From a phage, in the sequence record PX667085.1: a stretch of DNA of 64,000 nt. One strand, 5' to 3'. A program made the translations under genes and the position numbers. Numbering within the stretch: the stretch's first letter is position 1; each line of letters begins with the position of its first letter. The notes under the pieces were generated by a model that saw only the letters and a program-made list of their open reading frames with translations, searched no databases and had not been told where the DNA came from. Of the stretch, positions 800-62,832 are shown in pieces.

Positions 800-2578
800 G
801 TGTCGCACATTATAACTAAATATGGATTTGATGTTGATCTTAGCAAGGAAGGGCATACAGGTTGTCCGCGCTGCATGAAAAATGGCAAGGATCGCTCTCG
901 TAATAACCTGATGGTTTATGGATTAGATTCTAATGGAGAGCATAAAGGTGCTAAGTGCTTTGCGTGTGAATACACTATTCCTAGCGTAGAATGGTTACGA
1001 GAAAATGGTGAAGTTTTAGAAGAAGAGGAGGAGATTGTGGGTTCGGAATTTAATAAACAGATTCATCGTAAAATTGTTCAAGAAACATCAACCAACCCAC
1101 GTGGTTATCGAGGAATTAAAGAAAAAGTTTCATCTTTCTATGGTGTTCGTTATGAATACCGTCAGGAAGGGGATCAGATGGTAGTAGAAAGTTGTTTATA
1201 TCCGACTACTATCGGTAAAGAATTGGTTGGTTTTAAGCGTCGTATTCATCCTAAAGATTTCAGTAAACCTATTGGTCAAGTAGGTAAAGATGTAGATCTT
1301 TTTGGACAAATTCGTTTTGCAGACCGTTCTCATACTGTGGTAATTACAGGTGGTGAACACGATGCTCTGGCAGCTTATCAAATGCTATCTGAAAACTTGG
1401 ACAACAAGTATGAACTTCCAGCAGTAGTTAGTGGCACAACTGGTGAAACCAGTATGTATAAACAAGTTCAGGCACAATATCCTTTCTTTGAAAAATTTAA
1501 GAAGATTATTGTTTGCATGGATAATGACAAAGCAGGTAATGAAGCATTTGAAAATATTGTTAAGGTGCTGCCTCGTAACAAAGTCTACCGTATGCAGATG
1601 GATCTTAAGGATGCCAATCAGTATCTGGAAGAAGGTCGTGCAAAAGATTTCGTAAAAGCTTTTTGGAGTGCTCGTCTATACACCCCAGCAGGTGTTTATG
1701 CTTCTAATGTCTTGTATGAAGCTGCATTAGAATGCTTGGAATCCAAGATGATTACCTTGCCTCCTTTTATGCGTGTAGCTGCAAACATGCTGGGTGGTGG
1801 TTTAGTAGAGGAAGAGATTACAGTCATCCTGGCAAAGACCAGTATCGGTAAAACTTTAATGGTGAACGAGATCACCAAACATATTATTGTTGCGCACCCA
1901 GAACATACCCTAGGTATCCTGTCCTTGGAAGCAACTTATAAGAAATATTCTCGTAACCTGTTGTCCTCGTTCCTGCATATTCCTCTACACAGGAAAACAC
2001 CGGAAGAGAAATTTCAAATCTTGGAAGAGAATAAAGAAAAAATCCTAGATTTTTACGAAAGAGAAGATGGATCACCACGTTTTTATGTGTGTGATGATCG
2101 TGGAGCAGATGTGGAGTCTATCAAAGAAAAAGTTTTGGAGATGATCATCTATTTTGGAGTAACAATTCTTGTTATCGACCCTTATTCTGATTTGCTTTCT
2201 GGTATGGATGTTCAAGCCCAGGAAGAGTTAGCAACATGGTTGAAGCGCATCATGAAAGAGTATGCTATAACTATTATCGTCATCTCACACGTTAAGAAAT
2301 CGGCTAATGGTGGCAATGAACACTTAACAGAGGACGATGCAATGGGTAGTAGTTTCTTGGCTAAAGGTGCTGGTATTACCTTGGCTTTGGAACGAGATAA
2401 AGCCGCTGAAGACCCTGTAGAACGCAATACGACTCATTGCTTTATCCTAAAAAACCGTGAGTTCTCGGAAACTGGTCCGGCAGGGCAGTTTTACTATGAC
2501 ATTAGAACTGCAACTCTGCATGACAAAGAGCAGTATTTCAACAATCCTGCTAATTTGCCTACGGATAGCAACTATTAA
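800..2578 (+). CDS. bifunctional DNA primase-helicase (T7 gp4-like architecture)
   Basis: GTG start after AGGAGAA; N-terminal zinc ribbon CPRCMKNGKD...CFACEY; TOPRIM-like ITGGEHDALAAYQ and CMDNDKAGNEA; DnaB-type Walker A LAKTSIGKT and Walker B ILVIDPYSDL. Confidence 0.8.
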   Translation: MSHIITKYGFDVDLSKEGHTGCPRCMKNGKDRSRNNLMVYGLDSNGEHKGAKCFACEYTIPSVEWLRENGEVLEEEEEIVGSEFNKQIHRKIVQETSTNPRGYRGIKEKVSSFYGVRYEYRQEGDQMVVESCLYPTTIGKELVGFKRRIHPKDFSKPIGQVGKDVDLFGQIRFADRSHTVVITGGEHDALAAYQMLSENLDNKYELPAVVSGTTGETSMYKQVQAQYPFFEKFKKIIVCMDNDKAGNEAFENIVKVLPRNKVYRMQMDLKDANQYLEEGRAKDFVKAFWSARLYTPAGVYASNVLYEAALECLESKMITLPPFMRVAANMLGGGLVEEEITVILAKTSIGKTLMVNEITKHIIVAHPEHTLGILSLEATYKKYSRNLLSSFLHIPLHRKTPEEKFQILEENKEKILDFYEREDGSPRFYVCDDRGADVESIKEKVLEMIIYFGVTILVIDPYSDLLSGMDVQAQEELATWLKRIMKEYAITIIVISHVKKSANGGNEHLTEDDAMGSSFLAKGAGITLALERDKAAEDPVERNTTHCFILKNREFSETGPAGQFYYDIRTATLHDKEQYFNNPANLPTDSNY

Positions 2579-2597
2579 GGGCTTCGGCCCTTTTATT
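2579..2597 (+). terminator. rho-independent terminator after primase-helicase
   Basis: GGGCTTCGGCCC hairpin followed by TTTTATT directly after stop codon. Confidence 0.55.
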
Positions 2598-2608
2598 AAA
2601 AATACCTG

Positions 2609-2638
2609 TTGACAACTTTGCGGAAGGGACTTATACTT
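2609..2638 (+). promoter_or_regulatory. sigma70-like promoter TTGACA-N18-TATACT
   Basis: TTGACA at 2609-2614, TATACT at 2633-2638, about 30 nt upstream of the 2671 ORF. Confidence 0.55.
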
Positions 2639-2670
2639 GTCTCATCAACCAAACAAGAGGAGAAGTAAAA

Positions 2671-3102
2671 ATGCGTATGACAATCGATCTGAATGCAAAA
2701 GTTAAAGCTGCTGGTGCTCTGGGTGCTGGTGTTATTAAACACAAACAAGCGTTGGCATTTGCCATCCCACATATGATTGTTGAGGATCATCCTGAAGAGT
2801 TTGCTGTAAAAGTTGTTGAGAACAATGTCTCTGTTATTGAACATCTTCCAACTGGACGTTCTTACCGTGTTGTTTCTTCTAAAGGTTTCCGTTTCGATGT
2901 AAGCCCTTCTTTCACAAAAGGTGCTGGTCGTAGTAAAGTGGGTATTCTTTCTTACAAATATTATATCGATAAAGTTGCAGATGGTGTTGCATTCTGTCGT
3001 GTAAGTGAAGGTAAAGTAGATATCATCTTTAAAAATACTAAAAACATGGTTATTTCTGATGATGGTAAAGTTGACCTCACTATTGAGTTCGCTAACAACT
3101 AA
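2671..3102 (+). CDS. hypothetical protein
   Basis: 143 aa ORF with SD GAGGAGAAG upstream; no motif recognised. Confidence 0.45.
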   Translation: MRMTIDLNAKVKAAGALGAGVIKHKQALAFAIPHMIVEDHPEEFAVKVVENNVSVIEHLPTGRSYRVVSSKGFRFDVSPSFTKGAGRSKVGILSYKYYIDKVADGVAFCRVSEGKVDIIFKNTKNMVISDDGKVDLTIEFANN

Positions 3103-48110: not shown

Positions 48111-48189
48111 TGGAGGCGGGAATTGGATTTGAACCAATGATCTCCAGCATATGAAACTGGCGAGGACGACCAGACTCCTCTATCCCGCT
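48111..48189 (-). tRNA. tRNA-Met (anticodon CAT)
   Basis: CCA encoded; T-arm ATTGG-ATTTGAA-CCAAT; anticodon loop TTCATAT; 11-nt D-loop; A1-C72 mismatch. Confidence 0.55.
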
Positions 48190-48195
48190 ATTAGG

Positions 48196-48265
48196 TATCC
48201 CGTGCTGGATTCGAACCAGCATCACAATAAGTTGTGGAACTCTTATCCTGTAAGTCTAACGGGAA
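48196..48265 (-). tRNA. tRNA-like element, possibly degenerate
   Basis: clean T-arm GCTGG-ATTCGAA-CCAGC and 6-bp acceptor, but only 70 nt, no CCA, anticodon arm would need a 10-nt loop. Confidence 0.3.
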
Positions 48266-48267
48266 AT

Positions 48268-48341
48268 TGGTTGTTTCGACAAGAATCGAACTTGTGTCTC
48301 ACGATTATCAGTCGTGGGTTCTACCATTGAACTACGAAACA
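48268..48341 (-). tRNA. tRNA-Ile (anticodon GAT)
   Basis: CCA encoded; 7-bp acceptor; T-arm; anticodon stem CACGA/TCGTG with loop CTGATAA. Confidence 0.7.
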
Positions 48342-48347
48342 TTAAAT

Positions 48348-48424
48348 TGGTCGGAATTGCAGGATTCGAACCTGCGACCCTACGCTCCCAAAGCGTATGC
48401 TCTACCAAACTGAGCTAAATTCCG
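48348..48424 (-). tRNA. tRNA-Pro (anticodon TGG)
   Basis: CCA encoded; 7-bp acceptor; T-arm GCAGG-ATTCGAA-CCTGC; anticodon loop TTTGGGA. Confidence 0.7.
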
Positions 48425-48429
48425 TTATA

Positions 48430-48505
48430 TGGCTGGTCTGTCTGGATTTGAACCAAACCTACGACAGTCAAAGTGTCGTGTGCTACCTGACTACACTACA
48501 AACCA
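48430..48505 (-). tRNA. tRNA-Gln (anticodon TTG)
   Basis: CCA encoded; acceptor with one G-U pair; anticodon stem CGACA/TGTCG with loop CTTTGAC. Confidence 0.6.
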
Positions 48506-48603
48506 ATAAATCATTTAATGAAGGGCAACCAGAAGAGGTGTGAGAGAAGGAGAAAACCATGAGTAAAAGAGAAAGTTTTCTGGCAACCCTTTATTAAATA
48601 ATT

Positions 48604-48677
48604 TGGAGCGTTCTACGAGGATCGAACTCGTGCCGCCGACTTGGAAGGACGGAATGCTACCGCTACACCAAGAACGC
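48604..48677 (-). tRNA. tRNA-Gly (anticodon TCC)
   Basis: CCA encoded; perfect acceptor and T-arm ACGAG-GATCGAA-CTCGT; anticodon loop CTTCCAA; one U-U mismatch in anticodon stem. Confidence 0.55.
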
Positions 48678-48688
48678 CCTACCTCTTT

Positions 48689-48718
48689 ACTATACTACAT
48701 TTTACTATTGGTTGTCAA
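48689..48718 (-). promoter_or_regulatory. tRNA-unit promoter 1 (AACTATTGACAA motif, -10 TATAGT)
   Basis: minus-strand TTGACA at plus 48713-48718, TATAGT 18 nt downstream; directly precedes tRNA-Gly. Confidence 0.45.
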
Positions 48719-48993
48719 TAGTTTTATTGAGTGGGACAGTGACGAGTATCCCATTGGGTGACTAGCCCTACGTTCGGTAAGCTAACTTAAAATAATACAA
48801 AACCAAAGTCAAATATTATTCTTCGTTGCTGTCGATGGGAGAGCCGCTTCTTCTTTTGCCCCATCCAACCCTACTCCGGTCAAGTTTCAGGTAACTCTTT
48901 TTGTGTGATCAACACAATACTAAGAACACTGTCTTTCGAACAGACCTTGTGCACAGGATACGACGATCAATCACAGTGCTCTTAATGTTGTGT

Positions 48994-49068
48994 TGGTGCT
49001 CCCACTCTGAATCGAACAGAGATCCACGGATTACAAAACCGTTGTAATAGCCATTATACTATAGGAGC
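48994..49068 (-). tRNA. tRNA-Thr (anticodon TGT)
   Basis: CCA encoded; T-arm CTCTG-AATCGAA-CAGAG; anticodon loop TTTGTAA. Confidence 0.6.
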
Positions 49069-49074
49069 AAAGCT

Positions 49075-49151
49075 GGGACTCGGCAGGATTCGATACCTGC
49101 AATTCCAGAAGCCTCTTGGCGACTGGGGGTTTACCTTAACTCTACAAGTCC
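49075..49151 (-). tRNA. tRNA-like element with atypical 8-nt T-loop, anticodon unresolved
   Basis: acceptor pairs (6 bp plus one G-U) and T-stem GCAGG/CCTGC present, but T-loop is TATCGAAT and no 5-7-5 anticodon arm found; no CCA. Confidence 0.3.
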
Positions 49152-49158
49152 ATAATTC

Positions 49159-49244
49159 TGGCGATGAGTATAGGATTTGAACCTATATCGTTCTTTCGAA
49201 CACGGATTAACAGTCCGCCGCTTAAACCATTCAGCCAACTCATC
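49159..49244 (-). tRNA. tRNA-Asn (anticodon GTT) with extended 15-nt variable arm
   Basis: CCA and G73; perfect acceptor; anticodon arm GCGGA-CTGTTAA-TCCGT; extra hairpin GTTC-GAAA-GAAC before T-arm; 86 nt. Confidence 0.5.
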
Positions 49245-49250
49245 TTAATT

Positions 49251-49338
49251 TGGTGGTGAGTGATGGAGTCGAACCACCCGAATCGCAATGATAACAGATT
49301 TACAGTCTGCCCCGCTACCCCTACGGAATTAACTCACC
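49251..49338 (-). tRNA. tRNA-Tyr (anticodon GTA), class II
   Basis: CCA, A73, perfect acceptor; anticodon arm CAGACTGTAAATCTG; long variable arm; 88 nt. Confidence 0.7.
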
Positions 49339-49468
49339 TAAATACTAATATTTAAATTCTTTTTAAAATAGCCAGTGTTCACACCACTAACTATGAGTTA
49401 TCGGTAAGATGGTGGAGGCCATCTGCCGAAAGTTTACTCTATTAAAGTAAGCTATATTAAAAAGAACT

Positions 49469-49554
49469 TGGCGGTAGATGTAGGACTCGAACCTACACGC
49501 CGTTTCCGACTACAGTTTAGCAAACTGTCGTGGCTACCATTTCACCAATCTACC
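49469..49554 (-). tRNA. tRNA-Ser (anticodon GCT), class II
   Basis: CCA, G73, perfect acceptor; anticodon stem ACAGT/ACTGT with loop TTGCTAA; long variable arm. Confidence 0.7.
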
Positions 49555-49558
49555 AATC

Positions 49559-49649
49559 TGGCGGAAGGAGGGAGAGTCGAACTCCCAAGGCTCTTTCAAG
49601 CTCGGCGGTTTTCAAGACCGTTTTCGTCGCCACGTCGATTTGCCCTTCC
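49559..49649 (-). tRNA. tRNA-Ser (anticodon TGA), class II
   Basis: CCA, G73; anticodon region CGGTCTTGAAAACCG; long variable arm; exact 5' boundary uncertain. Confidence 0.55.
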
Positions 49650-49657
49650 ATACTTAT

Positions 49658-49687
49658 AATCTAACATAAAATAATGTTAGTTGTCAA
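49658..49687 (-). promoter_or_regulatory. tRNA-unit promoter 2 (AACTATTGACAA motif)
   Basis: minus-strand TTGACA at plus 49682-49687, -10 candidate TAGATT; directly precedes tRNA-Ser(TGA). Confidence 0.4.
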
Positions 49688-49883
49688 TAGTTTTTTAAAA
49701 CATTTTACCATGAATGGTGACTCCACCAACCCCCGTTCTCAACGAACGGTGCTCTTCGAGCATTTATGTCTTCTAATATAACCGTGGCCTTTGTTTATAA
49801 TGTCTGACATACTTGCCTCATTCTCTGCCACCATGATCAGTAGTGGGTTCAAATCACTTGAGCTAATTCATGTTAAAATGTTC

Positions 49884-49958
49884 TGGTGTCTTTACAAGGA
49901 ATCGAACCTTGACTAAGAGTTTAGAAGACTCCTGTGCTATCCATTACACCATAAAGAC
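49884..49958 (-). tRNA. tRNA-Arg (anticodon TCT)
   Basis: CCA, perfect acceptor, T-arm CAAGG-AATCGAA-CCTTG; anticodon loop CTTCTAA. Confidence 0.7.
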
Positions 49959-49960
49959 GT

Positions 49961-50035
49961 TGGTGGCCCTGGCTGGTTTCGATCCAGCTACCTATCGGTT
50001 ATGAGCCGACAGCTCTCCCATTGAGCTACAGGGCC
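49961..50035 (-). tRNA. tRNA with anticodon CAT (Met or lysidine-type Ile)
   Basis: CCA, perfect acceptor; anticodon loop CTCATAA; T-loop reads ATCGAAA (A at position 54). Confidence 0.6.
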
Positions 50036-59584: not shown

Positions 59585-60463
59585 ATGTTTGTAAAATCTT
59601 TTAAATCCGCTCTGCCTATGGTTGTTGGTGACGATGCTTCTGTAGCATCCCTTAACAGCATTACAGATATTCCTCTGGAATTTGTAACAGCAGAAGGCTC
59701 CCAGTCACACACTATCGGTCTTGTTCGTTTCGAAGATGACTCTAAATTTGTAAAAGAGTTTTCAGATCTTGAACTGCTTAATGTAGGTCAATCTGTGAAG
59801 AAGGTAGATAAAAAGAAAGTTAAACGTATTCTGAATGAACGTCTAGAAGAAATGCGTCAGGACATGGAGAGCGAAGGTAAAGAGTTTTATGTCGATAAAG
59901 AAGTAGTCAAAGCAATGAAGGAAGATATTGAATTTGCACTATTGCCTGAAACAGAACCTGAAGATTTCTTTAACTATGTTGTCTTGGATAAAACTACGAA
60001 TCTTCTTTATGTTCTTAATGGAAGTAAAAAGGTTGCAGAAGAGATTACTTCTTTCCTCCGTTCCGTTCTGGGGACTTTCCCTTCGGTAGGTTTTAGTGTG
60101 CACGAAGAAGCTATTGTAAAAGGTTTTGGTGAATTGCTGGAGAATCATGAAGCAGATCGTATTACTCTCGGAAATTATATCAAAATGGAGGATAGCGAGG
60201 GCGTTGTTGTTTGGAGTAAAGAATCCCTATACGAGTCTAAAGCTGTCGAACTAAAAGAAGATGGTAAAGATGTGGTTGCAATCGGTCTTGAATATGACGG
60301 TGTTGTAGATTTTGTAGTGGATAAAGAGTTTAAACTTTCTAAACTACGTTTTCCGAAATATTTTGCAGACGAAGAAGGTAGTATTGAAGCTTCAGTCCTT
60401 CTGTGCTTCAATGAGATTCGAGGTCTGATGGAAGATTTAACCAAAGCAACAATCCTTAAATAA
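59585..60463 (+). CDS. hypothetical protein
   Basis: 292 aa, acidic, SD AGGAGGAAA. Confidence 0.4.
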   Translation: MFVKSFKSALPMVVGDDASVASLNSITDIPLEFVTAEGSQSHTIGLVRFEDDSKFVKEFSDLELLNVGQSVKKVDKKKVKRILNERLEEMRQDMESEGKEFYVDKEVVKAMKEDIEFALLPETEPEDFFNYVVLDKTTNLLYVLNGSKKVAEEITSFLRSVLGTFPSVGFSVHEEAIVKGFGELLENHEADRITLGNYIKMEDSEGVVVWSKESLYESKAVELKEDGKDVVAIGLEYDGVVDFVVDKEFKLSKLRFPKYFADEEGSIEASVLLCFNEIRGLMEDLTKATILK

Positions 60464-60496
60464 GTTCTTGACTTGCGGGATTAGTTATGATATTAT

Positions 60497-60526
60497 GCCT
60501 ACCTACTTAATGAGGTAGGCTTTTTA
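60497..60526 (+). terminator. hairpin plus T tract (terminator or 5' leader structure)
   Basis: GCCTACCT...AGGTAGGC hairpin followed by TTTTT, just before SD of 60536 ORF; overlaps a TTGACT-N17-TATTAT promoter-like pair at 60468-60496. Confidence 0.45.
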
Positions 60527-60535
60527 GGAGGCGTT

Positions 60536-60745
60536 ATGAAAAAGATTCTGACAGTCGTTCTTTTAGCTTTTAGTTTCACAGTAGCAGCAGGTCAAATTAC
60601 TTTAATCTTGTCTGATTCTGAAGTTAATGGCAACACAAAATATTGCTACTATTCTAACGCTAACCAAGATGAAGTTATAGCAATCCCGAAAAGTCGTCAA
60701 TGTCCGTATACTAAAACATTCTCAACAGAGGATGACGATGAATAA
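60536..60745 (+). CDS. small secreted protein
   Basis: 69 aa; signal peptide MKKILTVVLLAFSFTVAAGQ; two Cys; acidic tail. Confidence 0.45.
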   Translation: MKKILTVVLLAFSFTVAAGQITLILSDSEVNGNTKYCYYSNANQDEVIAIPKSRQCPYTKTFSTEDDDE

Positions 60746-60757
60746 TTAGGGGGAAAT

Positions 60758-61876
60758 ATTAGCGGTTATATTTTAATTAAACCTGAAGATCTTCATTTAT
60801 ATGTCAACGAAGAAACAATAGCTGCAATTGATTATGATCAGATCGCTTTCCAAGCAGCATCTGCATTAGAGAAAAGAACAATCATTGCGAAGCACATCCC
60901 TTCAGGTGCTCAAAAGGAATTTAAAAATAAGACAGAGTTTTGGGGTAAAAGCAAGACTAAAATTGGAGGTTGGCTAGGAGATACAAATGCAGAAAGAGCC
61001 TCCAAAAACAAACGTCCCTTCACAAAGGAAGAGTTCGAAATCATTGATAAGCAATACCCGCCAGAAGATATCGGACACACCTTCCAAGCAGCTAAAACAA
61101 AAGTCTTAGGTATTCTAAAACATCTACGTTTAGAAAAATATTGCGGAGTTATTGGCGTAGGAAAAACTTTCAGACACGCCTTCAAAATGCCTGTAGAATA
61201 TAAGTCTGAACGATTAGATATTAAACCACTTCAGCTTTCAGAAACCAAAGATTATCTTGTGGAGTTCCACAATGGTGATGTTGTTACTGTAATAGAGGCT
61301 GACGATGAGTTAGAGAAGTATGGTTTCCAAGGTTATAAAGATTATAAAAGGACGGGTAAATTTTCTTATATCGTAGTGTCTATAGATAAAGATAGTTTAC
61401 ATACTCCTAGTATCCTTTTTAATTTCTACAAAGAGGATGGAGTATTTAAAAATCCAGATATAATTCTTATTGACGAGTCTATTGGCGACATATGGATCGT
61501 AGATAAAGGTAAAAAGAAAGAAGTTAAAGGTTGGGGAAGTTATTGGTTAGCCTATCAGATGCTAATGGGAGATAAAACAGATAGTATCCGACCTTATCAA
61601 GATTTTGATATTAAGTTTGGAGATATTACTTGTTTTAATCTTCTTTCAGCTTGTAAAACTCAAGCAGAGCTTTTCCAAACAGTTAAAGATACTTACTACT
61701 CGTGGTTCCCAGATGGTGTTAATTTTACTTCTTGGGATGGAGAAGAAGTCCATATGACAACAGACGAATGGATAGAAACAATTTTCCAGTTGGTATACAT
61801 GAAACGCTGGGACAATGACGATACAACATTTGAGAGTATGCTTCAGTCATACATCTCACAACAGGAGGCAGAGTGA
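60758..61876 (+). CDS. 5'-3' exonuclease / flap endonuclease (RNase H-like); start codon non-canonical and uncertain
   Basis: motifs IAAIDYDQIAF, VIEADDE, MLMGDKTDSIRP; the first is encoded upstream of first ATG (61187) in an open frame with no ATG/GTG/TTG; ATT at 60758 follows GGGGGAA. Confidence 0.55.
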   Translation: MSGYILIKPEDLHLYVNEETIAAIDYDQIAFQAASALEKRTIIAKHIPSGAQKEFKNKTEFWGKSKTKIGGWLGDTNAERASKNKRPFTKEEFEIIDKQYPPEDIGHTFQAAKTKVLGILKHLRLEKYCGVIGVGKTFRHAFKMPVEYKSERLDIKPLQLSETKDYLVEFHNGDVVTVIEADDELEKYGFQGYKDYKRTGKFSYIVVSIDKDSLHTPSILFNFYKEDGVFKNPDIILIDESIGDIWIVDKGKKKEVKGWGSYWLAYQMLMGDKTDSIRPYQDFDIKFGDITCFNLLSACKTQAELFQTVKDTYYSWFPDGVNFTSWDGEEVHMTTDEWIETIFQLVYMKRWDNDDTTFESMLQSYISQQEAE

Positions 61877-62832
61877 GCAGATTAACAGAAGAGCAGAAAG
61901 CAGATATCCTTAGTATGAGTGCAGAGGGTATGTCTTCTCGCAATATTGCAGCAATTGTTTTAGGTAGTCCAACAAGAAAAAGCACAGTAAATGATTTCCT
62001 TGCACGTTTCGGTGCAAGTAAACAAGAGCCAGTTAAAAAGAAACAACCAGTTATTAAAATTATTGATGTTGAAACTGCACCAGAGATTGCATATACTTTC
62101 CGTCGATTCAAAGCCTTCATTTCTCCAGACCAGGTAATTCGTAGGGGTTATTTGTTATCTTACTCTTCTGCTGATTTGTATACAGGTGAAGTAGAAGGTA
62201 AGAACTTATCTTCTTATCCTCTTTTCGATATCGATCATACAGATGATTGGGAACTTTGCCAAGATCTTTGGAATCTTCTGAATGAAGCTGATGTTGTTGT
62301 GGCTCACAACGGATATAAGTTTGACCGTGCATACATTAACCAACGATTTGCATATCACGATATGGCTCCTCCTTCTAATTATGTAGTTGTTGATACATTG
62401 AAGGCAGCTAAGAAACAATTTGCACTTCCTTCCAACTCCCTTAAAGAAATGGGAGCATATTTCGAAACAGAAAGTGAAAAACTGGATAACGAGGGGTTCC
62501 CTTTATGGAAAGCATGTTGTGAAGGTGATCGTGATGCTTTTGAACGTATGCAGATTTACAATGATGGTGATGTTGTTTCACTCCGTGATTTGTATATGAA
62601 AATCCTTCCGTGGATTCCACAGCATCCTAACTTATCCGCTTATTACCCAGATGAGAAGGTCCGTTGTTCTCGTTGTGGAAGTGATCACGTTCACGTTGTT
62701 ACTGGTAAACAATACCACACTGCGGTAAGTTCTTTCGATATCATTCGTTGTGAATCTTGCGGAGGTTTGTCACGTAGTAGAGCAAACACCAGATCCAAGG
62801 ATAAACGAGCAGCAACTATTATTGGAATCTAA
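61873..62832 (+). CDS. DEDD-family 3'-5' exonuclease with N-terminal HTH and C-terminal zinc ribbon
   Basis: Exo I IIDVETAPE, Exo II VVAHNGYKFDRAY, Exo III YNDGDVVSLRDLY; CSRCGSDH...CESCGG. Confidence 0.6.
   Translation: MSRLTEEQKADILSMSAEGMSSRNIAAIVLGSPTRKSTVNDFLARFGASKQEPVKKKQPVIKIIDVETAPEIAYTFRRFKAFISPDQVIRRGYLLSYSSADLYTGEVEGKNLSSYPLFDIDHTDDWELCQDLWNLLNEADVVVAHNGYKFDRAYINQRFAYHDMAPPSNYVVVDTLKAAKKQFALPSNSLKEMGAYFETESEKLDNEGFPLWKACCEGDRDAFERMQIYNDGDVVSLRDLYMKILPWIPQHPNLSAYYPDEKVRCSRCGSDHVHVVTGKQYHTAVSSFDIIRCESCGGLSRSRANTRSKDKRAATIIGI

Follow-up and report, generated by a model that had tools for sequence, protein, structure and literature searches.

A near-cognate AUU codon as the probable start of a conserved flap-endonuclease-superfamily gene in phAPEC8-like coliphages

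The 64,000-nucleotide (nt) stretch of phage DNA in record PX667085.1 (hereafter the window; positions are counted from its first letter) comes from a phAPEC8-like coliphage (Phapecoctavirus, Stephanstirmvirinae) and carries on its plus strand a gene for a protein of the 5′-3′ exonuclease/flap-endonuclease superfamily, in which no canonical start codon precedes the first catalytic aspartate. Translation of this gene very probably starts at a near-cognate codon, the AUU at 60758–60760 (ATT in the DNA), which would be decoded as Met, and this weak start appears to be conserved and selected as a limit on synthesis of the nuclease. The full-length coding sequence (CDS) would then occupy 60758–61876, with 372 amino acids (aa) and a TGA. 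The ATT call itself is already known from one GenBank record, that of phage ESCO13; what is new is that second-tier start codons interchange throughout a clade behind a perfect Shine-Dalgarno (SD) sequence, with canonical starts in the outgroups. Because the ATT would work like the AUU starts of Escherichia coli infC and pcnB, it belongs to a known kind of start and not to a new mechanism.

An earlier examination of the letters without database searches (the sequence-only reading) had pointed to a frame open from 60746 to 61876, and this frame indeed begins right behind a TAA (60743–60745) and ends with TGA (61874–61876). The same examination had found no canonical start upstream of 61187, and the open reading frame (ORF) listing agrees: the first in-frame ATG, GTG or TTG is the ATG at 61187–61189 (Met144). 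All three motifs that it had quoted, IAAIDYDQIAF, VIEADDE and MLMGDKTDSIRP, are present in the translation, and the upstream ORF (60536–60745; 69 aa with a hydrophobic N-terminus) is as described and in the same frame as the nuclease. The codons of Asp25-Tyr26-Asp27 in the IDYDQ motif lie at 60830–60838, with Asp25 119 codons upstream of the first ATG, and thus no ATG, GTG or TTG stands ahead of this essential residue. In a scan of all stop-to-stop ORFs of the window, the leader free of canonical starts measured 147 codons and was unique among real genes; a second candidate at 2569–3102 was dismissed, an ordinary terminator, promoter, SD and ATG being present there. ATG, GTG and TTG make up 4.3% of the codons in the window's long ORFs, and the probability of 142 codons without any of them is about 0.002.

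The proposed initiation codon follows the SD sequence AGGGGG (60748–60753; a 5/6 match to AGGAGG) and the spacer AAAT, and a near-cognate codon therefore stands at functional distance from an SD in the window. The sequence-only reading had placed the ATT 4 nt behind GGGGGAA; the 4 nt are right when counted from the end of the G-run, whereas only 2 nt separate the ATT from GGGGGAA. SD matches of at least 5/6 at 3–9 nt are found at 59% of the gene starts in the window versus 2.9% of random positions, and a perfect 6/6 SD precedes only 16% of the genes. The upstream ORF starts as AGGAGG-CGTT-ATG, with the same 4-nt spacing as the nuclease ATT.

The ATT had been named as the best start candidate, and it is supported by the homologous start positions in relatives as well as by the SD and its spacing. 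Comparison of the start regions across related phages, which the sequence-only reading had proposed as a check, revealed near-cognate codons within the clade and canonical codons at the same position in the outgroups. All 18 distinct sequences in the clade of at least 50% identity, cultured phages included, start with ATT, ATC, ATA or CTG, and none with ATG, GTG or TTG; the codon sits 4–5 nt past the SD, which is a perfect AGGAGG in 16 of the 18 lineages and AGGGGG in the other two. ATT is carried by Phapecoctavirus, Justusliebigvirus (including phi92 and PaulScherrer), a metagenomic group of 65% identity, L054, and the Klebsiella phages KP13-16 and FBKp34. Eleven contigs carry ATC, as do the cultured phages phiWec179, 181 and 186; ATA is found in three contigs, and CTG in one metagenomic contig (L018, identical to L056). 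In L016, L028, L029, L031 and L047 the ATC stands immediately behind an in-frame TAA, so that a start further upstream is not possible, and the following in-frame ATH codons are too distant from the SD. L016 gave no megablast match to cultured phages, and this TAA-ATC lineage is hence known solely from metagenomes.

Outside the clade, phage CR3 reads GAGGAGTGAGTA-ATG-GGT-TAT (MGYPVV) at the homologous position, where the window reads ATT-AGC-GGT-TAT; phiTE reads AAGGAGGAGTTA-GTG-GGA-TAC, and the rV5-like phage CarlMeissner reads AGGAGG-GTCT-TTG, with a 4-nt spacer. In two further outgroups, L037 (TTG) and L021 (ATG), the start lies immediately behind an in-frame TAA. Conservation is at the nucleotide level 5′ of the start codon, where the SD lies, and at the peptide level 3′ of it (I-(S)-G-Y-I-L-I-x-P-E-D-L). 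The near-cognate lineages group as one clade in a neighbor-joining tree of the proteins. Within this clade the codon has switched between ATT and ATC (window versus phiWec), ATC and ATA, ATT and ATA, and ATA and CTG, at saturating synonymous divergence, and it has never turned canonical though ATH to ATG takes one substitution. More than 120 independent genomes of coliphages and Klebsiella phages share the architecture, in addition to the metagenomic relatives.

The N-terminal 143 residues are conserved as protein and have a structural role. Homologues were found by tblastn in 1,213 phage records, in 901 of which the match spans 80% or more of the 376-codon frame; they include Justusliebigvirus (77% identity), Certrevirus (about 41%), Vequintavirus (37%), ICP1 and PAK_P1-like phages, whose matches begin at residue ~2–20 and extend over residues ~2–368. 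The residues shared by all 47 homologues in an alignment are D25, R139, Y148, K149, E180, D182, D183, D210, K211, D212, G260, Q267, D272, D275, M348 and D354; D27 is conserved in at least 90%, and D25, Y26 and D27 are all invariant inside the clade. Between the window and eight clade relatives, the proportion of synonymous differences (pS) is saturated at 0.66–0.90 and that of nonsynonymous differences (pN) in codons 2–143 is 0.16–0.34, which indicates purifying selection on the protein. An AlphaFold2 model with the homologue alignment as input reached a predicted local distance difference test score (pLDDT) of 96 and a predicted template modeling score (pTM) of 0.89. Residues 1–143 of the model have pLDDT 86–98; the opening 25 comprise a strand, a helix and a second strand ending at D25 (E5–7, H9–14, E16–25).

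The product of 60758–61876 is a predicted 5′-nuclease of the flap-endonuclease superfamily. The model has the PIN-like alpha/beta nuclease fold of this superfamily, and the sequence alignment contains the conserved carboxylate motifs for two metal ions (D..., EADD, DKD, GDxxD). Glu180-Ala-Asp182-Asp183 of the EADD metal-binding motif (61295–61306), Asp210-Lys211-Asp212 of the DKD motif (61385–61393), and Asp272 and Asp275 of the GDKTD motif (61571–61582) align with EADD, DKD and GDESDN of the Taq 5′-nuclease, and its FR/YK..R motif is matched as well. The window protein itself stays below the curated thresholds of PF02739 (5_3_exonuc_N) and PF01367 and has no Pfam match at E ≤ 0.1, and the assignment therefore rests on fold, motifs and homologues. 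Among the homologues, 14 of 47 match PF02739 (best 1.7e-6) and one matches PF01367, and the window protein matches PHROG 107 'exonuclease' at 1.4e-55; it thus represents a divergent subfamily linked to the family via its homologues. No match was found among the sequences in the PDB, and a profile search of the PDB gave only a weak match to Taq (E 0.085), so that the family assignment depends on structure prediction and fold search. T5 D15, T4 RNase H, E. coli ExoIX and Mycobacterium smegmatis FenA share 10–20% sequence identity with the window nuclease, which at 372 aa is longer than these proteins (240–317 aa) and has about 150 residues outside the aligned core.

Near-cognate initiation of this kind has been characterized in E. 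coli. Initiation was measured from all 64 codons by Hecht et al. (bioRxiv 10.1101/063800), and AUA, AUC, AUU and CUG form a second tier of start codons at 1–2% of AUG; Met is still N-terminal upon near-cognate initiation, and infC and pcnB are the sole confirmed non-canonical starts in this bacterium (bioRxiv 10.1101/063800). The four start codons of the phage clade coincide exactly with this second tier. In a reporter, AUU was 6–8-fold weaker than AUG or GUG (Osterman et al., PMC3592434). AUU starts restrict the expression of infC and pcnB (PMC3592434), that of pcnB being inefficient and limiting translation (Binns and Masters, 2002, as cited in PMC3592434), and near-cognate codons of the infC class are discriminated against by IF3 (PMC9723500). 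Like the nuclease gene, E. coli infC has an obligate AUU-class start that is conserved among homologues, with an SD ahead and an upstream stop only a few nt away (UAA-GGU-AUU). Unlike infC, the nuclease belongs to a phage and its codon drifts among AUU, AUC, AUA and CUG instead of being fixed as AUU; since its product is a nuclease and not IF3, it has no built-in autoregulatory loop. E. coli pcnB, which encodes poly(A) polymerase, resembles the nuclease gene in having an inefficient AUU start on an enzyme of nucleic acids, but it is chromosomal and encodes an unrelated protein, whereas the weak codon of the nuclease comes with a near-perfect SD and would be tightly coupled to an ORF just upstream. 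Full-text literature searches found no paper on the start codon of the nuclease gene, and neither the ESCO13 genome announcement (PMC5374246) nor a Justusliebigvirus announcement mentions it.

Initiation at the AUU could proceed as follows. The promoter-proximal small ORF upstream, with its perfect SD and ATG, would be translated heavily, and ribosomes that have just terminated at its stop, 12 nt ahead of the ATT, probably aid initiation on the nuclease. The near-perfect SD would hold both terminating and newly bound ribosomes with the AUU in the P site, where the initiator tRNA would begin the nuclease at a low rate; de novo initiation and reinitiation would each contribute a share. The weak codon would keep nuclease synthesis at a small fraction of the AUG level, with the SD partly compensating. 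Codons that are never canonical behind unusually perfect SDs suggest selection for initiation at a rate that is low but above zero, plausibly because an excess of 5′-nuclease would be harmful.

Several points weigh against a conserved and selected AUU start. The argument for selection against ATG is qualitative, about five independent third-position changes, never to G, being not significant alone. Nor are the near-cognate lineages phylogenetically independent, and by itself the statistical case is weak. CTG is based on a single metagenomic contig and ATA on three. At 4 nt the spacer is among the shorter ones usually seen, though neighboring genes have it too, and the window protein reaches no Pfam model. 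Finally, the literature searches yielded no N-terminal peptide, ribosome-profiling or toeprint data for any member of the group.

The alternative that survives best shares the AUU start at 60758 and differs in its source of ribosomes: the codon may be used almost solely by those that have just terminated on the upstream ORF, by termination-reinitiation or 70S scanning, so that the nuclease would depend on translation of that ORF and be made as a small, fixed fraction of it. This is possible and yet doubtful. In the window 12 nt separate the upstream stop from the ATT, and across all clade members the distance from stop to start is 8–18 nt, within the ~20 nt usual for coupling; in most relatives the TAG stop even forms part of the SD (T-AGGAGG), and the upstream ORF has a perfect AGGAGG and an ATG 4 nt behind it. 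In reporters, about half of the initiation at closely spaced cistrons, including an infC-like UAA-GGU-AUU junction, was due to reinitiation (PMC3592434). The same experiments, however, found de novo initiation and reinitiation in roughly equal shares, and a near-perfect SD is what is expected for de novo binding of the 30S subunit. Tight gene spacing is usual in this phage and in the canonical-start outgroups, and is therefore not specific to the nuclease gene. Obligatory coupling through an RNA structure that masks the SD or start was also considered and rejected; the 60700–60820 segment folds no more stably than its shuffles (z = −0.11), and no mRNA structure sequesters the start.

A further possibility, which we consider unlikely, is that the near-cognate start is a regulatory device. 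An IF3-discriminated codon behind a perfect SD, directly past a highly translated ORF, would make the nuclease a small fixed ratio of the upstream product. Such a start would act at the level of translation as a timer or rheostat for an enzyme that could damage genomes. Nuclease synthesis could then rise during infection if, after host shut-off, IF3 of the host becomes scarcer relative to ribosomes, and a depletion of ATG, GTG and TTG in the first ~140 codons would be co-adapted, stopping internal starts from outcompeting the true one. Under this reading, the second tier defined in the laboratory would find confirmation in nature, where AUU, AUC, AUA and CUG replace one another.

Initiation at another non-canonical codon slightly downstream, such as the ATT at 60770 or 60776, is distinctly improbable. 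Several in-frame ATT and ATA codons do lie within 20 nt, but 60770 and 60776 are 16–22 nt from the SD, beyond functional spacing, the annotated ATG, TTG and GTG of the outgroups are homologous to 60758, and the SD of the TAA-ATC lineages stands 5 nt ahead of the very first codon of the frame.

Even less probable is a functional protein of 229 aa made from ATG 61187, with the upstream frame an untranslated remnant. This ATG, a false start if the AUU is used, is the first canonical one and has been picked by gene callers in most records. The short form, however, would lose the invariant Asp25, the conserved FRH/YK motifs and half of the PIN-like core, although codons 2–143 are under purifying selection and align with homologues across many genera. 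Moreover, no good SD precedes 61187, and an untranslated gap of 440 bp would be unique in the tightly packed window.

A fusion of the nuclease with the upstream secreted protein, through recoding or through readthrough of the TAA, the latter an option of the sequence-only reading, is scarcely credible. The window does have both ORFs in one frame, and two database proteins, P0005 (444 aa) and P0092 (379 aa), resemble a fusion or an extension. In Justusliebigvirus, however, the upstream stop is in a different frame, and in L016, L017, L018, L028, L029 and L031 two stops separate the ORFs, so that the conserved in-frame arrangement with a single leaky stop is lacking; a signal peptide on a replication nuclease would also be biologically implausible. 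Both database proteins are gene-caller artefacts. The 'Q' of P0005 is TAG in the contig DNA, whose locus does not translate to the protein and offers another ATC start; P0092 arises only if TAG is read as Gln, one G is added and an out-of-frame ATG is used. Metagenomic callers had translated TAG as Gln to obtain the 444-aa 'fusion' (L024, 1501–2838) and the 379-aa form; lacking a canonical start to work with, they evidently gave a recoded genetic code the better score, and false signals of stop-codon recoding have entered phage catalogues in this way.

Loss of a canonical start through a sequencing or assembly error, also raised by the sequence-only reading, can be practically dismissed, since the 60400–62000 stretch matches 65 independently deposited Phapecoctavirus genomes at 95–99.4% identity with an identical start region, which several metagenome contigs share, and the same architecture recurs in 56 Justusliebigvirus records and other independently sequenced lineages.

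The AUU start, if used, has consequences for public annotation. The depositors of ESCO13 (KX552041.2) annotated the CDS from this ATT with a ribosome-binding site (RBS), giving the 372-aa protein AQM50955.1/YP_009786567.1; this is the same gene and codon as in the window, in a bare annotation that lacks the clade-wide ATT/ATC/ATA/CTG pattern. Among the 60 Phapecoctavirus records listed, it is the only one with the nuclease annotated over 60762–60960; 47, including those of phAPEC8 (the type phage) and its RefSeq copy, have no feature there, seven have only a 'hypothetical protein', and five are without any annotation. The 229-aa form is called on 385 contigs. Elsewhere, a fortuitous GTG or TTG without an RBS has been chosen: in the records of phi92 and of PaulScherrer, a BASEL phage, the gene begins with the GTG of codon 29, past IDYDQ, and the phi92 record flags its own GTG with 'No RBS identified; weak Prodigal statistics'. 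A TTG is the annotated start in phiWec179 (codon 12) and in the Klebsiella phages (three codons ahead of IDYDQ), and in PATM the gene is split. Nearly all public Stephanstirmvirinae records of the gene are thus N-terminally truncated and drop all or part of the N-terminal strand that bears the first catalytic aspartate; the error passes on to any structure prediction, family model or functional inference that uses such entries. The gene also offers a third, phage-borne non-canonical start beside infC and pcnB, and a natural evolutionary series, with AUU, AUC, AUA and CUG inside the clade and UUG, GUG and AUG in more distant relatives, in which selection on the initiation strength of a potentially harmful nuclease is easy to test.

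Two side observations concern the records and the codon usage of the group. First, records labelled 'Campylobacter phage' (MG065650.1, MG065639.1 and others), one labelled 'Acinetobacter phage' and one labelled 'Pseudomonas phage' are 97–100% identical to E. coli Phapecoctavirus or Justusliebigvirus over the matched stretch of 200–1,600 nt, which suggests host mislabelling or contamination. Second, the first 142 nuclease codons of the near-cognate clade contain 0–6 in-frame ATG, GTG or TTG per sequence, with a mean of about 2.4 versus 6.1 expected at 4.3% per codon (counted in window 60758–61186, L005, L012, L015–L018, L024, L027–L033, L035, L038 and L054), while the C-terminal 229 codons are at expectation (about 10) and the canonical-start outgroups have 4–9 in the N-terminal part. 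This depletion may reflect selection against internal starts that compete with a weak true start; the lineages are non-independent.

The neighborhood of the gene is compact. A sigma-70-type promoter-like site (TTGACT, 17 nt, TG-TATTAT) lies at 60468–60496 on the plus strand, as do the hairpin, the upstream ORF with its SD and the downstream exonuclease gene described below; it is a consensus match only, at 10 of 12 positions with an extended −10 TG, and the record of Klebsiella phage FBKp34 has an annotated promoter at the corresponding site. It is followed by a GC-rich hairpin and TTTTT at 60497–60520 (8-bp stem with five GC pairs); a similar hairpin is found at the same place in L024, with the same layout of promoter and hairpin. 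The hairpin is probably the terminator of the preceding RdgC-like gene (59585–60463), abutting the promoter. As its 5′ arm begins right past the −10 box, it probably ends the RdgC-like transcripts, whereas the promoter's own transcripts would start inside it and escape. The upstream ORF (60536–60745) has its SD, AGGAGG as read from the sequence, at 60526–60531, 4 nt ahead of the ATG, and encodes a small secreted protein with the signal peptide MKKILTVVLLAFSFTVAAGQ and the acidic C-terminus EDDDE. It belongs to PHROG 4641 (E 7e-27), a family of unknown function, and its phi92 homologue, gp086, has a SignalP probability of 1.000 in its record. The protein is conserved, has two Cys and is always encoded between the RdgC-like gene and the nuclease in the subfamily; the purine-rich 3′ end of its ORF (GAGGATGACGATGAA) is itself SD-like.

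The downstream gene (61873–62832; 319 aa) encodes a DEDD-type 3′-5′ exonuclease (Pfam RNase_H_2, PF13482, E 9.5e-10), whose GTG start overlaps the nuclease stop (GTGA, 61873–61876) and which relatives annotate as 'DNA polymerase exonuclease subunit'. Its C-terminal part has a CxxC...CxxC segment resembling a zinc ribbon. Together with the RdgC-like protein, the secreted peptide and the 5′-nuclease, this 3′-5′ exonuclease makes up a conserved recombination/replication block. The window also contains a cluster of ten tRNA genes, none resembling an initiator, on the minus strand at 48111–50035 (Met twice, Ile-GAT, Pro, Gln, Gly, Thr, Asn, Ser and Arg). A phage-borne initiator-like tRNA for AUU or AUC was rejected, as tRNA-Ile(GAT) and the two tRNA-Met(CAT) have neither a GGG:CCC anticodon stem nor a C1×A72 mismatch. 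One of these, the 79-nt tRNA-Met(CAT) at 48111–48189, has an A1×C72 mismatch atop its acceptor stem and may instead belong to the tRNA-Ile2 type (CAT, lysidine).

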